Positions 43,725-63,409 of a stretch of DNA of 64,000 nucleotides are shown here, piece by piece (the stretch's first letter is position 1; each line of letters begins with the position of its first letter). The stretch is from an uncultured Alphaproteobacteria bacterium (GTDB taxonomy: Bacteria; Pseudomonadota; Alphaproteobacteria; Caulobacterales; Parvularculaceae), in NCBI GenBank assembly GCA_937895955.1, contig CALAZI010000029.1, positions 4,099 to 68,098 of the forward strand, written 5' to 3'. The notes below the pieces were generated by a model. The model saw only the letters and a list, made by a program, of their open reading frames with translations, ran no database searches and was not told the origin of the DNA. The translations under genes and the position numbers were made by a program.

Positions 43725-44756
43725 CTATTTCTTCAGCAATTCGCGCTGGACGATGAAAAAGCCGATCGCCAGCGGCAGGAACAGCGTCAGTCCGCGATAG
43801 ATGACGCCGCCGGCGAACGCCGCCTCGACGCCGAGGCCGAGCGCGGCGAGAGCGGCGAGAAGCCCCGCCTCGAACGAGCCCAATCCCATCGGCGTCGGCG
43901 CGATCGTCGCGGCGAGCGAGGCGAGGCTGACCGCAATGATTGCGGTTGAAAAGGGAACGCCGCCGCCGAGCGCCTGGAACGCGATCCATAAGGTGACGGC
44001 GTCAAGCAGGCGCGCAATCGCCTGCAGGAAGAGACAGAACGCGAAGAGGCCGCGATCGACATAGATCAGCTTGAAGGCGTGCGCCGCGGTCCCGCGCGCG
44101 GTTTTTAGGCGCTCCGATCCGGCGGGAGCGCGCGATTGCGAGGCGAGAAAGAGCGCCGCGATGACGAACAGCAAAAGGATGGAGGCGATAGCGAAATAAT
44201 GAAGGTCGGCGACATTGACGGAAAATTGGTCAAGCGGTCCGCCGGCGAAGAAAAGCCATCCGAGCGCGCTCGCCGCAAAGAGGATGAAGGCGAGGATGAA
44301 GGATGTCGCGCCGAAAACGAAGGCGGTGAAGGCGTCAGCGCCGGCGACGCCGCGCCGTATCAGCGCGTGAATGAAAAAGACCGCGCCCGACACGCCGGCC
44401 GACGGGATCGCCTGATCGGCGAAAAGCTTGCCGAGGGTGAGAAGAAAGAGGCTGCGCCTTGGAACCGCGCTTTTGCGCCGCGCGAGAACGAGCCCCCAGA
44501 CGAGCGCCTGCGTCGCAAAGGCGAGGACCTGCGCGACAAGGGCGAGCAGGATCCAAAAGGGATCGGCGTTCGCCGCAAGCCGCGCGAAATCCTCAAGATC
44601 GCCGATATGAAACACAAAGGCGAAAAGCGCAACGAGCGCGACCGCGCCGACAATAAGCCCCGCAAGACGCGGCCGCTTGGCGCGCAAGGGGACTGGCGTC
44701 GCCGCGCCGTCTTCCAAAGCTGTTTTCGTCACCGCAAACGCCCTCGCATCACTCAT
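43725..44756 (-). CDS. Lysylphosphatidylglycerol synthase TM-domain (UPF0104) flippase-like protein
   Basis: Multi-TM; PTPMGLGSFEAG and IYRGLTLFLP motifs. Confidence 0.75.
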   Translation of the reverse strand: MSDARAFAVTKTALEDGAATPVPLRAKRPRLAGLIVGAVALVALFAFVFHIGDLEDFARLAANADPFWILLALVAQVLAFATQALVWGLVLARRKSAVPRRSLFLLTLGKLFADQAIPSAGVSGAVFFIHALIRRGVAGADAFTAFVFGATSFILAFILFAASALGWLFFAGGPLDQFSVNVADLHYFAIASILLLFVIAALFLASQSRAPAGSERLKTARGTAAHAFKLIYVDRGLFAFCLFLQAIARLLDAVTLWIAFQALGGGVPFSTAIIAVSLASLAATIAPTPMGLGSFEAGLLAALAALGLGVEAAFAGGVIYRGLTLFLPLAIGFFIVQRELLKK

Positions 44757-44878
44757 GGCGCACATTCTGGGCCGAAATTCCCCCGCCGCCCAGAGGGGGC
44801 GAGACGCTTGAAAATGGGGCGTCGGCCGCCCATGTCCAAAAAATGCGCCGGATGAGATAGGCGTTTTCGGCCCCTTGT

Positions 44879-47349: not shown

Positions 47350-48471
47350 ATGCGTTTTTCGTCTTCCAGGCCGCGCGCCGGCCTCGCCGCCTTTTTCTTC
47401 TTCTTCTCGCTTCTCGCCTCGCCAGTCTCAAACGCCGCGCCGGCGGCGATCCCGATGACGCCGGACGCCTGGCGCATCAACGCCGGGGAGCACCGCTTTG
47501 AAGACTATAGAGGCGAAAAAAGCCTCTTCCTCAAAGACGGCGCCGCCGAGGCGGTCGGCGCCGCTATTGAAAACGGCGTGATCGAATTCGATATCGCGCT
47601 CGAAAACGACCGCGGCTTTTCCGGCGTCGCCTTTCGCCGCGCCGGCCCTGGCGAATACGAGCATTTCTATCTGCGTCCGCATCAAAGCGGCCAGCCGGAC
47701 GCCAGCCAGTATACGCCGGTGTTCAACGGCGTTTCGGCCTGGCAAATTCTATATGGACCACGCTACGCCGCGCCGCTCGTCTATCGTTTTGACGAATGGA
47801 TGCATGTGAAGCTCGTCGTGCAGGGCGATAAGGCCGATATCTATCTCGACAGCGACAAGCCGGTTCTTCATGTCGCCAAGTTGATGCGCCATCGCCAAGG
47901 CGGCGCTGTCGCGATCAACTCCTTTTTCGCGCCGGCGCATTTCGCCAACCTGACGATAGAAGAAAGGGATGACGTCGCGATTGTCGGCGAGGCGCCGCCG
48001 CTTGATCCGTTGCAGCCGGGCGCCGTCGGCGACTGGGAAATTTCGACGCCGTTCGATTCGAAATCGCTAGAAGGCGTCGACCGCCTGACGAAGAAAGAGA
48101 TGAAGAGCCTCCAGTGGGCGAAGCTTGGCGCGGAAGAGAACGGCGTCGCCAATATCGCGCGCGTCGCCGGATTCGGCGAAGGCAAGGATACGGTCTTTGC
48201 CCGCCTTGTCATTGATGCGCCGCGCCGCGAAATCCGCCGGCTTCGCTTCGGTTTCAGCGATGAGGCCAAAGCCTATGTGAACGGCGGGATCGTCTATTCG
48301 GGTGGAGACGGATACATGTCGCGCGATCATCGCTTTCTCGGCACGGTCGGCCTTTATGACGCGCTCTATTTGCCGCTCGAAAAGGGTCGTAACGAAATCA
48401 TCTTTGCAGTGAAGGAGAATTTCGGCGGCTGGGCGATCGCCGGCGCGCTCGATGACGGAGATGATCAATGA
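47350..48471 (+). CDS. Secreted two-domain beta-sandwich protein (ConA/LamG-like plus carbohydrate-binding-like)
   Basis: Signal peptide; IEFDI..GVAFR..YEHFYLRP...EWMHVKLVV; C-terminal LRFGFSDE..AYVNG..LEKGRNEIIF. Confidence 0.55.
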   Translation: MRFSSSRPRAGLAAFFFFFSLLASPVSNAAPAAIPMTPDAWRINAGEHRFEDYRGEKSLFLKDGAAEAVGAAIENGVIEFDIALENDRGFSGVAFRRAGPGEYEHFYLRPHQSGQPDASQYTPVFNGVSAWQILYGPRYAAPLVYRFDEWMHVKLVVQGDKADIYLDSDKPVLHVAKLMRHRQGGAVAINSFFAPAHFANLTIEERDDVAIVGEAPPLDPLQPGAVGDWEISTPFDSKSLEGVDRLTKKEMKSLQWAKLGAEENGVANIARVAGFGEGKDTVFARLVIDAPRREIRRLRFGFSDEAKAYVNGGIVYSGGDGYMSRDHRFLGTVGLYDALYLPLEKGRNEIIFAVKENFGGWAIAGALDDGDDQ

Positions 48472-49556
48472 TCAGGCTTTTCACAACCTTCCTCGCATCT
48501 TTGCCGATGACGATGTCGATCGCCGCAGCGGCCCCTCTCTCCGAGAAGCAAATTGCGCCGAATGTGCGGATGATCCGGCTGGCGGAGAATGTCTATGCGT
48601 TCGCGGCGGACAATGCGACAGCCGATATCGTAGACGGCAATTCGACGCTCATTCTGACCGATGACGGCGCCGTCGTCGTAGATGCGCCGGGCGTCCATCT
48701 CGTTCGGACCCATATCGCTGAAATCAGAAAGCTGACGAAAAAGCCGGTCCGCTATCTCATCAACACGCATTGGCATCCCGATCATACGGTCGGCGACGGC
48801 GCCTACAAAAAAGCGTTTCCGGACGTTGAAATCATCTCTGACGACTATACGGCGGAAATCTGGAATCGCCGCGGCCCGGCGCTGTTTGAAAAGCTGATCG
48901 CCGGCGAAGAAGGCGAGGCGCTTCTTGCGCGGTTTGAAAAGAATGCAGGTTCCGCCGTCGATGAGGAAGGCGATCCGAAATCGGCGTATCAGGCGGGTCG
49001 CGACGCGCGTGCGGCGACGGATCTGAAACGCGCTTTTGAAAGCGCGGCGAAGACCGGCTTCGCCGGGCCCACGCGCACGTTCTCCGACGCAATGACGCTG
49101 ACATTGGGCGGAACTGAAATTCAATTGAAGAAATTCACCGGTCACTCGCGCGGGGATACGGTCGTCTTTCTTCCGGAGGAAAAGATTCTCATCACGGGCG
49201 ACCTTGTCATCCATCCGACGCCCTACGGCATCAATTCGGAATTTCGTTCCTGGCCGGAATCGATTGACGCCTTGCTCGCCTATGACGCCCGGGTCATCGT
49301 TCCGGGGCATGGCGACATGCAATATTCGATGGATTACATCCTGCTGCAGCAAAAGCTCATCCGCGCTTTGCGCGATCAGGCGAACCGGGCGGTGTCGGAG
49401 CGGCGCAAGCTCGCGGAATTTCAGGCTGAAATCGATCTTGAGGAATTTCGGCTGAAAATCGCCGGCGATGATCCCGATCTCAACTGGGCCTGGAAAAACT
49501 ACTTTCTCGACCCGGCGCCGCCTGTCGTCTTCGACATGGCGGGCGGCTCGCGTTGA
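48468..49556 (+). CDS. Secreted MBL-fold metallohydrolase
   Basis: INTHWHPDH, GHSRGD, ITGDL, VPGHG; ATGA overlap with upstream gene. Confidence 0.85.
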   Translation: MIRLFTTFLASLPMTMSIAAAAPLSEKQIAPNVRMIRLAENVYAFAADNATADIVDGNSTLILTDDGAVVVDAPGVHLVRTHIAEIRKLTKKPVRYLINTHWHPDHTVGDGAYKKAFPDVEIISDDYTAEIWNRRGPALFEKLIAGEEGEALLARFEKNAGSAVDEEGDPKSAYQAGRDARAATDLKRAFESAAKTGFAGPTRTFSDAMTLTLGGTEIQLKKFTGHSRGDTVVFLPEEKILITGDLVIHPTPYGINSEFRSWPESIDALLAYDARVIVPGHGDMQYSMDYILLQQKLIRALRDQANRAVSERRKLAEFQAEIDLEEFRLKIAGDDPDLNWAWKNYFLDPAPPVVFDMAGGSR

Positions 49557-49622: not shown

Positions 49623-50759
49623 ATGACAGGACCGCGCACAATCGAGGACGCATGGACGGCGAGCAAATCCGCCGGCAACAATCTCGACGCGATCCGTCTC
49701 GCGGCGGCGGCGCTCGTCATCTTTTCGCATTCATTCGAAATGAACGGCGGCGCGCGCGAGAATGAACCGCTTGAGATTATTTCCGGCCAGATCAGTTTCG
49801 GCGAACTCGCGGTGCTCGTTTTTTTCGCCATCAGCGGTTTTCTGATCGCGAAGAGCTGGGCGGCGCGGCCGAAACTGTCCGTATTCGTCCGAAATCGCGC
49901 TTTGAGGATCATGCCCGCGCTGGTCATTGCGGTCGCGCTGTTGACGTTCGTCGCCGGTCCGTTGCTGACGACGCTTTCTCCCGGCGCCTATTTCGGCGAC
50001 GCGCGTCTTTCTTGTTTTCTTCTCAATGCGGTTTTCGTTTCGGGTTGCGGGACGCTTCCGGGCGTTTTCAATGAAGAGCTCGCGAACGCGCCTTTATGGA
50101 CGCTCGGCTTTGAAGCGCTGTGTTACGGCCTCGTCGCCGTTCTCGGCGTTCTGAGAATCCTGAAAGCGTCCGCCTGCGCCGCGCTAGCCCTCCTTATCAT
50201 CGCCTTTGGCGCCGCGACGGGCTGGGGCGGCGGCTTCTTCTACAAGCTGTCGGCGCTTGCGCCGCCCTTCCTGATCGGCGCCGTCTTCGCGCTCGCGGCG
50301 GACCGGGTCCCGCTCGATCATCGTCTGGCGGGCGTTTCAGCGCTTGTCCTTCTCGCGTCGACATTCGCCGGCGCGCTGGTCATCTCTTTCGCCTTTTTCG
50401 GCGTCTATCTCGTCCTGTGGGCGGGGTTCGCGCCGTTCGGGGCAGCGCTCGCCCGGATCGGCGCGCGCGGCGACTTCTCCTACGGTCTCTATCTCTGGGG
50501 CTGGCCGGTCCAGCAATTCGCCGCCCAGACGGTCGGCGGCCCGCCGGCGGTCAATTTTCTGCTGAGCCTGCCGATCGCCTTCGCGCTCGCCGTATTGAGC
50601 TGGCGGTTCGTCGAGCATCCCGCGCTGGCGCTCAAAACCGCCATGCGTCCCACGGGCGGCGCAGGGCCAGGATTAAACTTCCGAAACCCCGCCGCCTCTG
50701 CGCCAAAGCCTTTGCCGGGCGCAGCCGAAGCCGCTATCAGGATACAAAATCACGATTAA
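49623..50759 (+). CDS. Acyltransferase family 3 (OafA-like) membrane O-acyltransferase
   Basis: LDAIRLAAAALVIFSH, VFFAISGFLI, WTLGFEALCY, GDFSYGLYL, SWRFVEHP. Confidence 0.88.
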   Translation: MTGPRTIEDAWTASKSAGNNLDAIRLAAAALVIFSHSFEMNGGARENEPLEIISGQISFGELAVLVFFAISGFLIAKSWAARPKLSVFVRNRALRIMPALVIAVALLTFVAGPLLTTLSPGAYFGDARLSCFLLNAVFVSGCGTLPGVFNEELANAPLWTLGFEALCYGLVAVLGVLRILKASACAALALLIIAFGAATGWGGGFFYKLSALAPPFLIGAVFALAADRVPLDHRLAGVSALVLLASTFAGALVISFAFFGVYLVLWAGFAPFGAALARIGARGDFSYGLYLWGWPVQQFAAQTVGGPPAVNFLLSLPIAFALAVLSWRFVEHPALALKTAMRPTGGAGPGLNFRNPAASAPKPLPGAAEAAIRIQNHD

Positions 50760-57406: not shown

Positions 57407-59329
57407 ATGAACGGACGCAATCTCCTCATCTGGGGCCTCGTCTTCGTGTTCTTCATCGTCGCACTGCAGCGCTTCGAAATCTCGCGTCCGGGACCGCAGC
57501 CGGAAGAACTCAACTATTCCGCATTCATCTCCCGCATCGACAGCGGCGAGATCAAATCGGCCTCGATCGACAAGGAAGTCGTCAAAGGCGTCCTCAGCGA
57601 CGACAGGCATTTCATCACCGCCATTCCGGAAGGGTCAGGCGTCGCCATCGCCGATCGCCTCAACGGGGCGGGCGTTCAGACCGAGATCAAGCCGGAAGAG
57701 CAATTGCCGCTTCTGCTTTCGGTGCTGTTCAACATCCTGCCCTTTATCATTTTTCTCGCCTTCTTCTTTTTCGTCATCCGCCAGATGCAAGGGGCGGGCG
57801 GCAAGGCGATGGGCTTCGGCAAGAGCCGCGCGAAGCTGCTGACCGAACGTCAGGGCCGCGTCACGTTTGACGACGTCGCCGGCATCGACGAGGCGAAAGA
57901 AGAGCTTGAGGAAATCGTCGAGTATCTGAAAGACCCGATGAAGTTCCAGCGCCTCGGCGGCAAGATTCCGAAAGGCGCTCTGCTCGTCGGCCCGCCGGGC
58001 ACCGGCAAGACGCTGCTCGCGCGCGCCATCGCCGGCGAAGCGAACGTGCCGTTCTTCACGATTTCCGGGTCTGACTTTGTCGAGATGTTTGTCGGCGTCG
58101 GCGCAAGCCGCGTCAGAGACATGTTCGATCAGGCGAAGAAGAACGCGCCCTGCATCATCTTCATTGATGAAATCGACGCGGTCGGCCGTCATCGCGGCGC
58201 CGGCCTCGGCGGCGGCAATGACGAACGCGAACAGACCTTGAACCAGCTTCTCGTCGAAATGGACGGCTTTGAATCGAATGAGGGGATCATCCTCATCGCG
58301 GCGACGAACCGTCCGGACGTTCTCGATCCCGCGCTCCTGCGTCCCGGCCGTTTCGACCGCCAGGTCGTCGTGCCGAACCCCGATGTCGTCGGCCGTGAGA
58401 AAATCCTTCAGGTGCACGCGAAGAAAGTGCCGCTTGCGCCCGACGTCAATCTCCGGACGATCGCGCGCGGCACGCCCGGCTTCTCGGGCGCCGATCTCGC
58501 CAATATCGTCAATGAGGCCGCGCTCCTCGCGGCGCGTCGCGGCAAGCGCTTCGTCACGTCGAAGGAATTCGACGACGCGAAGGACAAGGTGCTTATGGGC
58601 GCCGAACGCCGCTCGATGGCGATGACGGAAGAGGAAAAGACGCTCACCGCCTATCATGAGGCCGGTCATGCGCTGGTCGGCATTTCCGTTCCCGGCAATG
58701 ATCCCGTCCATAAAGCGACGATCATTCCGCGCGGCCGCGCGCTCGGCATGGTTCAATATCTTCCCGAACGCGATCGTTACTCGATGTCGTTCGAGCAAAT
58801 GAAGGCGCGCATCGCGATGGCGATGGGCGGGCGCGTCGCCGAAGAATTGAAATTCGGCAAGGAAAAAGTGACGTCCGGGGCGCAGCAGGACATCGAGCAT
58901 GCGACGAAGATCGCGCGCGCGATGGTGACCCAATTCGGTCTTTCCGAAAAACTCGGGCCGATCGCCTATGCGGAAGACGAGGGCGAGGTGTTCCTCGGCC
59001 AGTCGATCGCCAGAACCAAGGCGATCTCAAGCGACACCGCCAAACTCATCGAAGAGGAAATTCGCCGCTTCGTCACCGACGGCTATGAACGCGCGCGTCA
59101 GGTGCTGACGGAACGCAACGCCGATTGGGAAAAACTCTCGCAAGCGCTGCTGGAATTCGAAACGCTCTCCGGCGAGGAGATCAACGCGCTGCTGCGCGGC
59201 GAACAAATCGTCCGCAAGGAGCCGACCGATCTCGGCGATACGCCGCCGCCGTCATCCGTGCCGACAGCGGGCGAAACGGCGCGCTCGGGTCCTGAAAGCG
59301 GCCTCGAACCGAATCCGGCCGGCGCGTAA
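57407..59329 (+). CDS. ftsH: ATP-dependent zinc metalloprotease FtsH
   Basis: [39 protein letters not shown]. Confidence 0.98.
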
Positions 59330-59348
59330 CCGGTCATCTGTTTTCGGC

Positions 59349-60041
59349 TCAGGCTGCAAGGGCTCTGTCGACGGCCGCTTTGGCGAGCGAGAGTTCGTCT
59401 TCATACTTCGCCGTCGCATCCAGATCGAATATCGGCGCCCCGTTGAAGGACGTCTTCGGGAGCGCCGCGATTTTTTGCGACACAAGCGTCCGGTTATGGT
59501 CGGGCTTTCGCGCCATCGCCGTGTCGATGTCGACATGCAGCCTGATCACCAATGTCGGCACATAGGCCGCCATACGCCGATACAGCGCGCGCTCTTCGGC
59601 TTTAATGCGCGCGACATCCGGACTTTTCGCGATGCCCGCTAGGATGGGGCCGTCGTGATATCCGGCGATTTCAGCTTGAGGATAGCGGTCGGTGACAATG
59701 ACGACGCCGTTGCGGCGCTTTTGCTGCAAGGCCTCAAACCGCCGAAATCTTTTTTTCGACCGATAGAGCGCGTAGCGCGCGACAAGACCGCTCGGTATTG
59801 TCGATTCCGAGTCGCGCAAGCGATCCGCAATCTTTTCAAGTCGCGATTTCAGCCAGGGGCCGACGAACGGCCACTGGCCGATCTTCTTGCCCTGAACGCT
59901 TGAACCTTCGCCGAGATAACCGGCCTCCGCCGGGCGGCTGCGCCCGATATGCGCGATGAGATCGCTTGACAACTGCGATTTTCCGGCGCCGTCGCAGCCG
60001 ACGATTGCGATCAATGGCGCCAGATCAACGTCGCCGGCCAT
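59349..60041 (-). CDS. Thymidylate-kinase-fold P-loop kinase, YghR-like
   Basis: IVGCDGAGKS P-loop, VTDRYPQAEI..DGP, LVIRLHVDIDTAMARKPDH; closely follows E. coli YghR as recalled; ATG overlaps upstream TGA. Confidence 0.75.
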   Translation of the reverse strand: MAGDVDLAPLIAIVGCDGAGKSQLSSDLIAHIGRSRPAEAGYLGEGSSVQGKKIGQWPFVGPWLKSRLEKIADRLRDSESTIPSGLVARYALYRSKKRFRRFEALQQKRRNGVVIVTDRYPQAEIAGYHDGPILAGIAKSPDVARIKAEERALYRRMAAYVPTLVIRLHVDIDTAMARKPDHNRTLVSQKIAALPKTSFNGAPIFDLDATAKYEDELSLAKAAVDRALAA

Positions 60042-60781
60042 CAACGCAGATCTTTAAAATATCCCGTCAAGCCGATCCCGCTTATGGAAAGCCGCAATGC
60101 GATGATCGCGCCGTATGCGTAGACCCATATCATCTGCGCTGACGAGAGTTGAGCGATATCGAAGCCGTATCGCGCGAACCACGCGAAGAAAACCCCGGTC
60201 GCCAGCAGGAACAATTTATGCTGTTCGCGCCAGATCATGCGCTTCCACCAAAATCCGTATTTCGGCTTCACCCAACCGGTCAGCCTCGGCATCAGCATCG
60301 GCGTCGCCGCCGCCCACCGGTCGTATTCTTCGCCGAATTTCGATTGCAGGAATGCGGCTTCGAAAGAGGAGATGCGAATGTAGATAAGAACTGAGGCGAA
60401 AAGCGCGATGGCGCTGAAAACGATGCTGCCGGAAAGCATGGCGAGGCCGGCGTAGTTTATGATGCGTCCCGTATAAAGCGGATTGCGGACGAGGCTGTAA
60501 AATCCGGTCGTGTTGAGTTCAGCCGCCTCGGGCGCGCGTTTAACGCGCCCGGAAGTTCCGTATGCTGCAAAACCTGACGCCAGGGCGCGAAACAGAGCGC
60601 CGGCCGCAGCCGTCGCAATCGCCGATCCGAACCAGACGCGGTCGAGCGCCGCGCTTTCAAACGGGCCCGCATCGCGCGTCGTCAGGACGATTGCGGTCGA
60701 GATGATGATGATGGCGTAGATGTAGAGGCCGCGGATGAAAAACAGTCCTTGACCGAGGCGATCCGTATTCGTCTGAGGCAT
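60041..60781 (-). CDS. ICMT/PEMT-family membrane methyltransferase, LmtA-like
   Basis: GTSGR...LNTTGFYSLVRNPLYTG...RISSFEAAFLQSKFGEEYDRWAAATP..P..G..KP...RE; start ATG 60781 or TTG 60853. Confidence 0.75.
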   Translation of the reverse strand: MPQTNTDRLGQGLFFIRGLYIYAIIIISTAIVLTTRDAGPFESAALDRVWFGSAIATAAAGALFRALASGFAAYGTSGRVKRAPEAAELNTTGFYSLVRNPLYTGRIINYAGLAMLSGSIVFSAIALFASVLIYIRISSFEAAFLQSKFGEEYDRWAAATPMLMPRLTGWVKPKYGFWWKRMIWREQHKLFLLATGVFFAWFARYGFDIAQLSSAQMIWVYAYGAIIALRLSISGIGLTGYFKDLR

Positions 60782-60898
60782 GGAGTCGGTTCTATCCAAA
60801 AAAACGGCGTCGAGCGAACCCTCGCTCTTCTCAAGGACATCATACTCGCGCAAGCCGGCTCATCTAGCTGCGGGCTGCGCGGTCCGTCAATATTGCCC

Positions 60899-62452
60899 CT
60901 AGGTTGCAATAAGCCGCAGTCTTTGCGCGGCTTTCCCGAGCGAAAGCCGATCGGCGAGCGGCAATGCGCAGCGCGCCGACGCCCAGATGGAAACGGCGGC
61001 TATCGATATGACGAGCGGTATCGCAACGGCGTTGGGCAGGTGAGAGCCGGCGGCGCTCAAGGCGCCGCCTGCGAACGCGCTTGCGAGCGCGACGGCCGCA
61101 ACACGCGGAAACGCATTTGTGAACGGGTGCAGCGCTTCAACGCGCCAAAGCTGCGCCATGGGAATGGCGGAGGCGAAAACGAGGCCGATCGACGCCGCAA
61201 GCGTCACCGCCATCAACGCCGGCGTCCTGTCCAAAAGCCACCAGCCCGACAGGGCTGCGACAATTAGGCCGACAAGACTTGCGGTCAATTGATGACGAAA
61301 GGCCGCGACAACTTGCAGCACGGGGAGCGAGATGCCGAGCACGGCTTCCGCGGCGCGCGCAAACAGGAGGGTGATGACGGCGGCCTGGGCGATTTTCGCG
61401 TCGGGACCGAACAGCGAAAGGAGCGGCGCGCTGCCCGCCGCCAGAACGACGGCGAGCGGAACGGCGACGACGAAGATCAGCCGGACCGCGTAAGCGTAGA
61501 TCTCCCTGACTTCCTCGCGGTCCTTTCGCTCAGAACTTGCGGCGAGCGGCGCGAGCACATAGGAAAAGGCGATATAGACGAGTTGTATGACGCTCGACAG
61601 TTTGCGCGCGATGATGAAAAGGCCGCCGGCCGCCGCGCCTTGCGCGCCCGGCAGCAATTGATTGACGACGAGCGCGGGCGCATCGCTGAAAAGGCGCGCG
61701 ACGATGTTTGACGGCAGAATTGAAACGCCGGCGAGGGCCGTATCTTGCGCGGCCTTCGGCCAGAACGGGGCGGCGAATAATAGATTCAACCGATAATATC
61801 GCGCCAGCAAACCAAGGCTCAGCAGACCCGTGATCGCCAGAGAACAAAGATGAGCGATAAACAATCCGATCAGCCCGAATCCCATCGCGAAAAAAACGCT
61901 GGCGAATCCAAGACGTATCAATTGCTCCCAGACGATCCGCAGGCGGATTTCCGCGCCGAACAGCATTCGGGCGCGCAGCGCCGATGTCGCGATCTCGACA
62001 AACGCCCATAAGGGAAGCGCCCAGACGAACAGACGGATCGCCATGACAAGGTTTTTCTCGTCGGATGCGGCGACGTTGATCAACGGCGCGATTGCAGGCG
62101 CGCGCCAGGCGATGATGACGGCCGCGATGAGACATGGCCCGACGCCCATGAGCAATGCGGCGCGCAACGCCGCCGCCGCGTCTTCGTCATTCGCCGATCG
62201 CGGCACGGTGCGCTGCATCGCGCTTGTCATGCCGAGATCGCAAACATTCTCGATCAGGTTGATCGCCGACCACAAGACGGCGTAAAGGCCGTAGCCTGCG
62301 AGGCCGAACATCAGGACGTAGAGCGGTTGCGCGACGATTTCGACAAGCGCGCCCATTCTGGCGAGCGCTGTCGTGCCGATGCCTTTCGCAACGCGGCGGC
62401 TCGCGCCGGAATTCTCCTGTATTTCGTTGTCGGCCATATTGCGCTGTGCCAT
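60899..62452 (-). CDS. Wzx/MATE-superfamily oligosaccharide or lipid flippase
   Basis: 12-14 TM segments; FGLAGYGLYAV..DLGM, AAGGLFIIARKL; start 62452 or 62437. Confidence 0.75.
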   Translation of the reverse strand: MAQRNMADNEIQENSGASRRVAKGIGTTALARMGALVEIVAQPLYVLMFGLAGYGLYAVLWSAINLIENVCDLGMTSAMQRTVPRSANDEDAAAALRAALLMGVGPCLIAAVIIAWRAPAIAPLINVAASDEKNLVMAIRLFVWALPLWAFVEIATSALRARMLFGAEIRLRIVWEQLIRLGFASVFFAMGFGLIGLFIAHLCSLAITGLLSLGLLARYYRLNLLFAAPFWPKAAQDTALAGVSILPSNIVARLFSDAPALVVNQLLPGAQGAAAGGLFIIARKLSSVIQLVYIAFSYVLAPLAASSERKDREEVREIYAYAVRLIFVVAVPLAVVLAAGSAPLLSLFGPDAKIAQAAVITLLFARAAEAVLGISLPVLQVVAAFRHQLTASLVGLIVAALSGWWLLDRTPALMAVTLAASIGLVFASAIPMAQLWRVEALHPFTNAFPRVAAVALASAFAGGALSAAGSHLPNAVAIPLVISIAAVSIWASARCALPLADRLSLGKAAQRLRLIAT

Positions 62453-62512
62453 AGCGAGCCCGCCGCCGCGTTGCAACGAGCCTGCGCCGCGCCGCTTCAG
62501 GAATCGAGGACG

Positions 62513-63409
62513 ATGAATATGCGACCCCATACGGCGAAACGGCTTGCGGCGTCGGCCGCCTTTGTTGGTTTGAGCGCTTGCGCAAGCGCGCCCGAAACGG
62601 CGCCGCCGTCGCCCTGGGCGGCGTCAAACCCCGACTGGGTCGAGCGCATCGAACCGTTCAGGATCTATGACAATATTTATTTCGTCGGCACGCGCGGTCT
62701 GGCGAGCTTCCTCATTGTAACGTCTGAAGGACATTTTCTCATCGACGGCGGCTTGCCGGAGAACGCGCCGGCCATCGCCGAAAATATTGGTTCGCTCGGC
62801 TTTAAGGTCGGCGACGTCAAATACCTCCTCAACAGTCATGCGCACTTTGATCATTCAGGCGGCCTTGCAGCGCTCAAGAAAATGTCGGGCGCAACGATGG
62901 TTTCAAGCGAGGGTGACAAATGGGCGCTTGAGACGGGGCTTGTTCCGGGGTCGGAGGAAGATGCGACCTACGCCGCGCCGCCGGTGAAGGTCGACCGCAC
63001 GATCGGCGACAACGAGGCGCTTTCTCTTGGCGGCGTCTCGCTGACCGCGCATCTGACGCCCGGTCACACCAAAGGCTGCACGTCGTGGACGATGAATGCG
63101 GGCGGGAAAGAGGCGCTCTTCTTTTGCAGCGCCACGGTCGCGGCGAACCGCCTGGCGGGGCCGCCGCAATATGACGGCATTGTCGAGGATTACCGCGCGA
63201 CCTTCGCAAAAACGAAGGACTGGCGGCCGGACATTTTTCTGGCCAATCACCCGGGATTTTTCTCGATGGAGGAAAAGCGGACCCGGCAATTGGAAGGCGT
63301 AGAACAGGCGTTTGTCGATCCGAACGGGTTTCAGATAATGATAGAAAAACTTGAAGCTGCATTCGAAAAATCGCTCGCTGAGCAGACGTCGAAAGCGCAA
63401 GGCGAATGA
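62513..63409 (+). CDS. Subclass B3 metallo-beta-lactamase, lipoprotein
   Basis: EPFRIYDNIYFVGT, NSHAHFDHSGG, PGHTKGC, FFCS, ANHP; lipobox LSAC; GAGGA RBS. Confidence 0.88.
   Translation: MNMRPHTAKRLAASAAFVGLSACASAPETAPPSPWAASNPDWVERIEPFRIYDNIYFVGTRGLASFLIVTSEGHFLIDGGLPENAPAIAENIGSLGFKVGDVKYLLNSHAHFDHSGGLAALKKMSGATMVSSEGDKWALETGLVPGSEEDATYAAPPVKVDRTIGDNEALSLGGVSLTAHLTPGHTKGCTSWTMNAGGKEALFFCSATVAANRLAGPPQYDGIVEDYRATFAKTKDWRPDIFLANHPGFFSMEEKRTRQLEGVEQAFVDPNGFQIMIEKLEAAFEKSLAEQTSKAQGE

Follow-up and report, generated by a model that had tools for sequence, protein, structure and literature searches.

WbdD of E. coli O9a combines a kinase with a methyltransferase, and the O-antigen is capped with methyl phosphate. 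The locus described here, found in a 64-kb window (the whole stretch of DNA that was analysed) from a Parvularculaceae MAG, likewise pairs a kinase with a SAM methyltransferase, and the proposed outcome is again a lipid-linked glycoconjugate of the surface that would bear a methyl phosphate. In WbdD, however, the kinase is of the eukaryotic type, the methyltransferase is a Rossmann enzyme, and both reside within one soluble protein, which serves an ABC-transporter pathway and not a Wzx-type flippase. Pfam and NCBIfam family searches found no WbdD-type domains (Pkinase, class I methyltransferase) in the three proteins of our locus.

The methyltransferase finds its best family match in LmtA of Leptospira interrogans, the lipid A 1-phosphate O-methyltransferase (PMC4402001), which leads by about 60 bits and over nearly the whole length. 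Both are integral-membrane, SAM-dependent members of the ICMT/PEMT superfamily. The window gene, however, has a kinase and a flippase as coupled partners, an arrangement that we did not find described for LmtA in the literature consulted, and its hosts are mostly Sphingomonadales, reported to lack lipid A synthesis.

YghR, YghS and YghT, encoded by E. coli genes long without an assigned function, are full-length homologues of the window kinase (33-39% identity), share its invariant motifs and are likewise encoded beside a MOP flippase. Their order in E. coli O111:H8 is yghO(cerS)-aasR-cerR-acpR-spt-lptG2-lptF2-ytfJ-hyp-yghQ-yghR-yghS/yghT (PMC9386255). Unlike the window, the E. coli locus holds three kinase paralogues, a flippase of the YghQ type and a 274-aa protein without Pfam match, and has no methyltransferase. 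Moreover, yghQ/R/S/T lie within a cryptic spt-cerS locus; in the window, by contrast, a free-standing trio is enclosed by ftsH and folP.

The ceramide (di)phosphoglycerate pathway of Caulobacter (CpgA-D, CC_1153, CC_1158, CC_1166, LptF2G2) offers another parallel, in which a ceramide head group is phosphorylated and tailored before the lipid meets a putative MOP flippase and is exported by an Lpt-type route. In Sphingopyxis, the trio is flanked by genes for a CpgB-like kinase of the DAGK type and for homologues of CC_1153 and CC_1158 (Metallophos). The pathway differs in its YghQ-type flippase, in that no methyltransferase is known there, and in CpgB itself, a DAGK/LCB5-fold ceramide kinase and not a P-loop protein (10.1101/2023.05.01.538943).

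Gene layout and family placement

All three co-oriented ORFs are present where the preliminary description had placed them, on the minus strand in the order flippase, methyltransferase, kinase:

60899..62452, minus strand: MOP/Wzx-type flippase, 517 aa (ORF; orthologue alignment)
60782..60898, minus strand: spacer of 117 nt from the flippase stop to the likely methyltransferase start (sequence; homologue lengths)
60041..60781, minus strand: LmtA-like integral-membrane SAM-dependent methyltransferase of the ICMT/PEMT superfamily, 246 aa (PF04191, TIGR04571)
60039..60043, minus strand: TGATG stop/start overlap of methyltransferase and kinase (sequence read directly)
59349..60041, minus strand: soluble P-loop kinase of the YghR/YghS/YghT family with thymidylate-kinase-like fold, 230 aa (BLASTP, motifs, AF2)
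59317..59335, plus strand: weak terminator-like hairpin in the ftsH/kinase gap, of uncertain membership in the module (consensus scan only)

GC3 values of 0.70-0.74 and hundreds of homologues with E<1e-80 indicate that these are real genes and not chance ORFs. The methyltransferase TGA (60043-60041) and the kinase ATG (60041-60039) have one A in common (cgtTGATGgcc), confirming the overlap reported earlier, and this arrangement probably couples translation of the two genes; a TTG at 60044 is the other possible kinase start. A consensus scan of the 117-nt spacer revealed no convincing promoter or terminator. A terminator-like match at 60755-60743, on the same strand and just within the methyltransferase ORF, lies within shuffle expectation, and the match count for the hairpin at 59317..59335 is not above it either; with counts at shuffle level, the scan is uninformative. 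A gap of 19 nt separates the kinase gene from the convergent ftsH, and the trio together with an MBL-fold gene occupies the stretch between ftsH and folP-glmM. An anti-phage defence system was rejected, since a comparison of the three proteins with the PADLOC models gave no match up to E 0.01.

For the flippase, a longer ORF of 543 aa extends to 62530; the ATG giving 517 aa is supported by orthologues (59-80% identity), which align from residue 1 of this form. A crude hydropathy scan displays ~11 hydrophobic segments. The sole Pfam match of the window protein searched alone is a sub-threshold MatE (19 bits), and orthologues at 63-67% identity bear PF01943, PF13440 and weak MurJ matches. Membership in the MOP/Wzx type follows from PF01943 and PF13440 in the orthologues together with a profile-level relation to the YghQ family (hhalign probability 96.3%, E 1.5e-9, 330 columns, 17% identity). 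This relation is superfamily-level only, and orthology with YghQ was rejected, the BLASTP matches (E 0.23-0.45) being not significant.

The maximal ORF of the methyltransferase spans 60041..60853, and databases annotate a 270-aa form from 60853. Since its homologues are nearly all 246 aa long and begin at an internal MPQ/MYQ, translation likely begins with the ATG at 60781. A match to PF04191 PEMT (1.1e-11, 45.5 bits, cutoff 25) places the protein in the ICMT/PEMT superfamily, while PF04140 stays under its cutoff (18.6 against 24). The likeness to LmtA proposed earlier holds at family level in NCBIfam TIGR04571 (E 6.8e-27; residues 34-260 against model positions 11-229 of 252); the score of 94.8 bits against a cutoff of 325 indicates that the enzyme is not an LmtA equivalog. 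The PDB ICMT 4a2n matches with E 0.022, and ICMT structures are the sole plausible fold matches of the AF2 model (pLDDT 79). Enzymes of the ICMT/PEMT superfamily also methylate carboxylates, amines and thiols.

The motifs listed in the preliminary description (TSGR, GFYSLVRNPLYTG, KFGEEYDRWAAATP, KP, RE, RNPLY and EA) are present, but its spacing was one residue off, the sequence reading WAxxxP and not WAxxP. Alignment of the family reveals GTSGR, NTTGxYSxVRNPLYxGR, E141, KF and FWWKRMxWRE as invariant. EA in place of EE had been raised as a caveat; the window does carry EA, but this is local variation, as the first Glu never changes and EE is found in the Sphingomonadales orthologues. No methyltransferase-kinase fusion protein occurs among the best 150 cluster representatives.

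BLASTP aligns the kinase with E. coli YghR, YghS and YghT at 39%, 37% and 33% identity (E 4e-51 to 7e-42) over about 217-223 of its 230 residues, bearing out the likeness to YghR (E 4e-51, full length) proposed earlier. The family has no Pfam model, and membership is given by this full-length similarity and by the shared motifs GxDGxGKS, DRYPQ and RKPDH, invariant across the family. The P-loop Asp and the DRY Arg are conserved, and the basic RKPDH segment is taken to be the lid. TMP kinases are the top Foldseek matches (TM 0.53-0.60) of the AF2 model (pLDDT 87), and Tmk, with which the protein has the P-loop GxDGxGKS and DRY in common, represents the closest solved fold. An insert of roughly 50 residues (40-95), which includes a conserved WPxxGP loop, sets the window kinase apart from Tmk, as do its genomic partners, which are membrane proteins. 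A true dTMP kinase, which would have overturned the earlier proposal, was rejected on a TIGR00041 score of 19.2 bits against a cutoff of 83.25 and the lack of any PF02223 match. A ceramide kinase of the CpgB type was likewise rejected, with no DAGK_cat match and a P-loop TMPK-type fold instead. The crude hydropathy scan found no hydrophobic segment in the kinase.

Conservation of the operon and genomic associations of the kinase family

Among the 80 closest species-level loci, chosen by closest kinases, the methyltransferase gene lies directly upstream of the kinase gene in 75, with the tight junction likewise seen in 75, and a flippase of the same type also lies upstream on the same strand in 70. 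Half of the ten flippase-less loci lie on truncated contigs. An HMM-based estimate of the methyltransferase-kinase gap was skewed by N-terminal profile columns and is excluded. The trio spans Parvularculaceae and many genera of Sphingomonadales with differing flanks, which are ftsH/folP in the former and sdhB/AFG1 and others in the latter. Flippase, methyltransferase and kinase thus form one operon conserved across many alphaproteobacteria. The preliminary description had staked its reading on recurrence of the trio, which is found in about 70 other species, and had known of no account of it; our literature searches (yghR/yghQ, LmtA, sphingolipid methyltransferases) also found none. The trio is a real, undescribed module.

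A connection of the kinase family with sphingolipids emerges from several lineages. The yghQ/yghR region of non-K-12 E. coli, in which the two genes are adjacent, is a sphingolipid locus annotated with spt, as had been stated earlier, and the link is wider than was then known. About 38 of the 77 loci that were seeded with E. coli Spt (Enterobacterales, Pseudomonas) have a YghR-type kinase gene no more than 10 kb from spt, and such kinases also occur near spt in Burkholderiaceae, Dyella and Luteibacter. An NTP_transf_3 gene adjoins the trio, in varying position and orientation, in 68/68 Sphingomonadales-type loci where it was detected. The profile of this gene has matches in 40 of 80 spt loci (E 1e-46 to 1e-85; a few of them fragmentary), and the Caulobacter match adjoins cerS, which is the position of CC_1153, a gene needed for ceramide diphosphoglycerate synthesis (PMC11324152). 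Some Sphingopyxis trio loci additionally contain FA_hydroxylase.

Other observations count against a sphingolipid reading. The Parvularculaceae MAG of the window has no sphingolipid gene in the 64 kb or in 8 kb beyond, and no CC_1153-like gene at the locus. The methyltransferase profile has no match in 157 spt loci, and the profile of the window-type flippase has none in 80. The flippase of spt loci is of the YghQ/CC_1166 type, to which the window flippase is 17% identical, and therefore sphingolipid producers may already own a dedicated flippase.

Fusion proteins offer a further view of the kinase family, in which 54 of the 61 two-domain representatives join the kinase to NTP_transf_5. Genes for these fusions occur in Actinomycetota, Chloroflexota, Bacteroidota, Gemmatimonadota and Vibrio, with neighbours (n=116) that include GT4 (15), Wzy_C (6), sulfotransferases (5), Polysacc_synt (4) and Polysacc_synt_2 (4). 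Because outside Proteobacteria they are surrounded by GT4, Wzy, Wzx and sulfotransferase genes, the kinase family is not sphingolipid-specific. The 274-aa E. coli protein between ytfJ and yghQ was considered as an unfused NTP_transf_5 domain and rejected (hhalign probability about 1%).

The metagenomic protein P0383 (978 aa) is a fusion that combines a YghR-type kinase with an NTP_transf_5-like domain and a flippase of the Polysacc_synt_3 family. Association of the kinase family with a MOP-type flippase is thereby seen in the window, in E. coli, in the alphaproteobacterial loci and in this fusion, which, judged from its domains, would physically couple kinase and flippase and count for unity of action of the operon. 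Another relative, P0246, has a hydrophobic, probably membrane-spanning N-terminal extension; together with the flippase fusion it suggests action at the membrane.

A proposed lipid-tailoring function and its alternatives

From the gene identities, family placements, operon conservation and genomic associations observed, we infer the catalytic steps, their order and the substrate. We hypothesize, with a probability of roughly 45%, that the three products act jointly, from the cytoplasmic side of the inner membrane, on one membrane-anchored lipid, most likely a sphingolipid, which would be phosphorylated, O-methylated and flipped. The soluble YghR-type kinase would add an ATP-derived phosphate to the lipid head group; the resemblance of its catalytic motifs to those of thymidylate kinase means that it may extend an existing phosphate. 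The LmtA-like enzyme would then use SAM to O-methylate an anionic group on the same head group, by analogy most likely the phosphate and alternatively a carboxylate, and, as an export step, the MOP-family flippase would bring the modified lipid into the outer leaflet. Such a sequence of phosphorylation, methylation and flipping is plausible.

The preliminary description had proposed phosphorylation, methylation and export of a glycolipid, sphingolipid or LPS unit. The conserved functional unit, the family placements and the sphingolipid link agree with this, while the LPS option is weakened, as most hosts belong to the Sphingomonadales, for which the absence of LpxC, LpxB and WaaA and of any lipid A or LPS synthesis has been reported (10.64898/2026.04.12.717747). 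The favoured substrate class in these alphaproteobacteria is most likely a sphingolipid (phospho- or glyco-ceramide) and not lipid A.

A somewhat unlikely alternative is that the substrate tailored and flipped is a polyprenyl-diphosphate-linked glycan, be it an O-antigen, capsule or EPS repeat unit or a terminator; the trio would add a methyl-phosphate or similar cap, as WbdD does, but by means of unrelated folds. The Wzx/Polysacc_synt grouping of the flippase, the surroundings of the NTP_transf_5-kinase fusions and the Polysacc_synt_3 domain of P0383 would all fit. However, no glycosyltransferase, Wzy, Wzz or sugar-nucleotide gene lies beside the trio in Pfam-annotated loci, and clustering of the 80 loci revealed no recurring glycan gene family. 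Whereas O-antigen and capsule loci are variable, this one keeps its synteny from genus to genus and looks housekeeping-like, and its constant partner in Sphingomonadales is the CC_1153-type gene of sphingolipid loci.

The kinase might instead make a small phosphorylated precursor, from which a CC_1153-like or NTP_transf_5 nucleotidyltransferase would form an NDP-linked head-group donor, followed by PEMT-like methylation and export by the flippase. LicA and LicC provide such a kinase/nucleotidyltransferase route for phosphocholine. We consider this quite improbable here. The kinase family is repeatedly paired with nucleotidyltransferases, adjacent as NTP_transf_3 or fused as NTP_transf_5, the Pfam match of the methyltransferase is PEMT, and CpgD sets a precedent for NDP-activated head-group donors in bacterial sphingolipid synthesis (PMC12275187). 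Yet no nucleotidyltransferase or transferase lies near the trio in the window or in other Parvularculaceae-type loci, the putative translational coupling of the kinase is to the methyltransferase and not to a nucleotidyltransferase, and the flippase fusion and the hydrophobic extension of P0246 point to action at the membrane.

That the P-loop protein is no kinase at all but a regulatory or energising NTPase of the flippase, with an independent methyltransferase, appears very improbable, even though P0383 would fit a regulatory role too. The TMPK-type catalytic motifs (DRY Arg, presumed RKPDH lid) do not vary within the family, MOP flippases, being normally ion-coupled, require no ATPase, and tandem paralogues, arranged as YghR/S/T or fused in P0241, better suit successive reactions.

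Lipid A is an unlikely substrate, and a scheme in which a true LmtA methylates its 1-phosphate while the kinase supplies or restores that phosphate is extremely improbable: LmtA is the best family match and the window organism, which has tol-pal, may make LPS, but the LmtA score falls far under its cutoff, most hosts are Sphingomonadales, reported to be without lipid A synthesis, and lipid A-core is flipped by MsbA and not by a MOP flippase.

Phosphorylation, methylation and flipping of a sphingolipid remains our preferred reading of the trio. A broader and rather doubtful extension of it would make YghR-type P-loop proteins unrecognised, phylum-spanning kinases that act on lipid-anchored head groups where these enter MOP flippases, with the alphaproteobacterial LmtA-like partner yielding a methyl-phosphorylated, charge-masked sphingolipid. 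The presence of the same kinase domain in Wzx/Wzy clusters of other phyla suggests a wider role in surface glycoconjugate tailoring.

Knowledge of how sphingolipids are decorated and flipped in bacteria is only now emerging, and the trio, compact and widely conserved, makes this question directly testable. If the broader extension is true, methyl-phosphorylated sphingolipid would be a new bacterial lipid class, and yghR, yghS and yghT of E. coli would receive their first function. A methylated anionic head group would change the charge of the outer membrane, with possible effects on phage adsorption, on how sensitive the cells are to polymyxin and cationic peptides, and on immune recognition of sphingomonad glycosphingolipids.

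Arrangement and conservation of the three genes

Three co-oriented ORFs lie on the minus strand within positions 59349-62530 of the window, and their GC3 values (0.70-0.74 in all three) are like those of the surrounding genes:

Start ATG at 62452 (likely), minus strand: flippase, 517-aa form
60781-60041 (probable), minus strand: methyltransferase, 246 aa, starting at an internal Met
Third gene, minus strand: kinase, 230 aa, with its ATG overlapping the methyltransferase stop

The flippase is a polytopic membrane protein, and the ATG at 62452 is its likely start since orthologues align from residue 1 of the 517-aa form. The maximal methyltransferase ORF encodes 270 aa, and public gene calls adopt this length from a TTG at 60853. 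Because almost all homologues are 246 aa long and begin at the internal Met, the shorter gene is preferred, and the extra 24 codons (60782-60853) are, judging from these homologues, probably an annotation artefact. The methyltransferase stop and the kinase ATG have one base in common (cgtTGATGgcc).

To examine the conservation of this arrangement, we scanned one genome per GTDB species for relatives of the kinase, which yielded 413 loci. In the best 80 of these, the methyltransferase is directly upstream of the kinase in 75, and a flippase of the window type lies upstream on the same strand in 70. Among the ten loci lacking the flippase, five are on truncated contigs and four carry an E. coli-like cassette in its place, leaving a single genuine absence (L062). 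These loci come from MAGs of Parvularculaceae and Caulobacterales and from many genera of Sphingomonadales (Sphingopyxis, Tsuneonella, Altererythrobacter, Sphingobium, Blastomonas, Sphingorhabdus and Chakrabartia). The flanking genes differ between these host groups, indicating that the linkage of the trio has survived rearrangement. The three products form a conserved, translationally coupled set, and the phosphorylate, methylate and export system proposed in the preliminary description is not contradicted by a lack of co-occurrence in other genomes.

In the window, the kinase end of the trio is flanked by the convergent genes tolQRAB-pal-cpoB-tilS-ftsH, while past the flippase end come an MBL-fold gene, folP and glmM; no obvious partner of the trio is among them. 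ftsH and folP-glmM are often adjacent in bacteria, and so the trio and the MBL-fold gene, which sit between them (window 59349-63409; L325:6630-13447), look like an insertion into this block in Parvularculaceae. Elsewhere in the window there are two genes of envelope-lipid type, encoding an LPG_synthase_TM protein with an MprF-like transmembrane domain (43725-44765, minus strand) and, immediately upstream of tolQ, an Acyl_transf_3 membrane acyltransferase (49623-50759, plus strand). A 373-aa ORF without a Pfam match (47350-48471, plus strand) has a coding-like GC3 of 0.72; its last 4 nt are shared with the beginning of an MBL-fold gene (48468-49556).

Family relationships of the three proteins

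Taken alone, the window flippase gives only a sub-threshold MatE match, and orthologues at 63-67% identity carry Polysacc_synt and Polysacc_synt_3. A profile comparison against the YghQ family aligned 330 columns with 96% probability and 17% identity. Together, these results place it by sequence in the MOP/Wzx superfamily, in a subfamily distinct from YghQ.

Against the Pfam PEMT model (PF04191), the methyltransferase scores 45.5 bits, which is enough to pass. Its top NCBIfam match, by a wide margin over ICMT (32 bits) and MddA (26 bits), is Leptospira LmtA (TIGR04571, E 6.8e-27, residues 34-260). The likeness to LmtA drawn in the preliminary description is borne out to this extent; the score is far under the 325-bit equivalog cutoff, so that the protein is LmtA-like and not itself an LmtA. 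For its AF2 model (pLDDT 79), ICMT structures are the sole resemblance, and a weak one. Conserved across the clade are GTSGR, NTTGxYSxVRNPLYxGR, a Glu, KF and, near the C-terminus, the basic and Trp-rich FWWKRMxWRE. The replacement of the EE frequent in ICMT enzymes by EA, raised earlier as a caveat, holds for the Parvularculaceae branch only, whereas Sphingomonadales orthologues have EE.

The kinase is a full-length homologue of E. coli YghR, as previously proposed, as well as of YghS and YghT (39%, 37% and 33% identity; E 4e-51 to 7e-42), a family for which no Pfam model exists. GxDGxGKS, DRYPQ and RKPDH are among its invariant motifs. Thymidylate kinases are closest to its AF2 model (pLDDT 87; TM 0.53-0.60), and in the profile alignment its P-loop and DRY motif fall on the corresponding motifs of human TMPK. 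A true dTMP kinase can nevertheless be rejected, as the protein reaches 19 of the 83 bits required by TIGR00041.

Polysaccharide and sphingolipid contexts

At E<1e-3, the wider kinase family comprises 989 cluster representatives. Of the 150 best, about half are ~ 500 aa long and carry an NTP_transf_5-like domain at the N-terminus, and seven are tandem kinases. The metagenomic protein P0383 (978 aa) joins a Polysacc_synt_3 flippase, an NTP_transf_5-like domain and a YghR-type kinase in a single polypeptide, so a kinase-flippase fusion exists. NTP_transf_5-kinase fusions are present in Actinomycetota, Chloroflexota, Gemmatimonadota, Bacteroidota, Vibrio and others. Polysaccharide genes lie closest to them: of 116 neighbours, 15 are GT4, 6 Wzy_C, 5 sulfotransferases and 4 Polysacc_synt. 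The fusions and these neighbours indicate that the kinase domain pairs generally with Wzx-type flippases where surface glycoconjugates are assembled; in Proteobacteria it has been recruited to sphingolipid loci.

In E. coli O111:H8, the gene order is yghO-aasR-cerR-acpR-spt-lptG2-lptF2-ytfJ-(274 aa)-yghQ-yghR-yghS, with yghT divergent. yghO encodes ceramide synthase, and the E. coli gene set makes dihydroceramide (PMC9386255); sphingolipid transport in Caulobacter needs the LptF2G2 paralogues (10.64898/2026.04.12.717747). In the two strains compared, the locus seems to have taken different routes of decay. In K-12 (L006:10147-12409), IS5 has truncated yghQ to 355 aa and removed the spt-lptF2G2 part, whereas O111:H8 (L007:6056-15065) has kept the full locus but carries the fatty acyl-AMP ligase gene aasR as a pseudogene with an internal stop. 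Among 77 loci seeded with E. coli Spt, ~ 38 hold two or three YghR-type kinases, in Enterobacterales genera and Pseudomonas. Among the 80 listed loci seeded with alphaproteobacterial Spt, such kinases occur in four (Burkholderiaceae, Dyella, Luteibacter and Citrobacter).

Sphingomonas and Stakelama harbor E. coli-like cassettes with a 274-aa protein lacking a Pfam match, two YghR-type kinases, no methyltransferase and, except in L085, a YghQ homologue (L073:9911-13576, L087:9911-13576, L082:2219-5753). The 50% identity of the latter to YghQ is high between alpha- and gammaproteobacteria, which suggests that the cassette is shared through horizontal transfer. Two Sphingomonadales loci mix both versions (L072:4843-10657, L077:4871-10696), with an extra YghT-like kinase, the 274-aa protein and an NTP_transf_3 gene between the flippase and the methyltransferase-kinase pair.

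This NTP_transf_3 gene (~ 260 aa) adjoins every Sphingomonadales trio where detectable (n = 68), in either orientation and placed downstream, upstream or between flippase and methyltransferase. Its profile matches a gene in 40 of 80 listed spt loci (E 1e-46 to 1e-85; a few of the matches are fragmentary). The Caulobacter match adjoins cerS, the position of CC_1153, whose mutants lose ceramide diphosphoglycerate (PMC11324152). In Sphingopyxis, the trio is additionally accompanied by a Metallophos protein, whose homologue occupies the CC_1158 position, and by a protein with a weak match to DAGK_cat, which is also the fold of CpgB, the ceramide kinase (10.1101/2023.05.01.538943); many of these loci hold an APH-type kinase and some a FA_hydroxylase.

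A candidate pathway and its alternatives

We tentatively propose, at a probability of roughly 0.45, that the trio tailors and exports a sphingolipid. The soluble kinase would act at the inner membrane face on the lipid substrate of the flippase, the methyltransferase would next O-methylate the head group at one of its anionic groups, after which the flippase would translocate the methylated lipid. By analogy with LmtA, the methylated group would be a phosphate, yielding the scheme first suggested from the sequence; WbdD offers a functional parallel, with folds unrelated to those of the trio. Alternatively, it could be a carboxylate, e.g., of a glucuronosyl or phosphoglycerate head group, as ICMT relatives methylate carboxylates. 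Given the TMPK-like Arg of the DRY motif and the basic RKPDH segment, which we read as the lid, the kinase acceptor might already be phosphorylated.

The sphingolipid assignment draws on the spt-locus links in E. coli and other beta- and gammaproteobacteria, the CC_1153-like neighbours in Sphingomonadales and the host range. Against the proposed pathway, the window's own lineage has neither a CC_1153-like gene nor a sphingolipid gene nearby, the matches listed for both sets of spt loci include no methyltransferase homologue, and the flippase of those loci is of the YghQ/CC_1166 type, not the window type.

A polyprenyl-linked glycan as substrate would agree with the polysaccharide context of the wider kinase family, but the Pfam-annotated trio loci have no adjoining glycosyltransferase or Wzy; this reading is distinctly less probable. 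Still less expected is a kinase producing a precursor for a nucleotidyltransferase, like LicA and LicC, which misfits the lineages lacking a nucleotidyltransferase. That the P-loop protein is a regulatory NTPase instead of a kinase appears improbable. Lipid A methylation is very unlikely, because the Sphingomonadales are reported to be devoid of lipid A synthesis (10.64898/2026.04.12.717747). A defence role of the trio found no support.

In our literature search we found no paper devoted to the trio or its methyltransferase clade, and none dealing with the function of yghR, yghS or yghT. The superfamilies of the components are already known, as is, in general terms, the principle of tailoring a head group before flipping; new is their combination in this trio, which represents a well-founded lead, open to direct testing.
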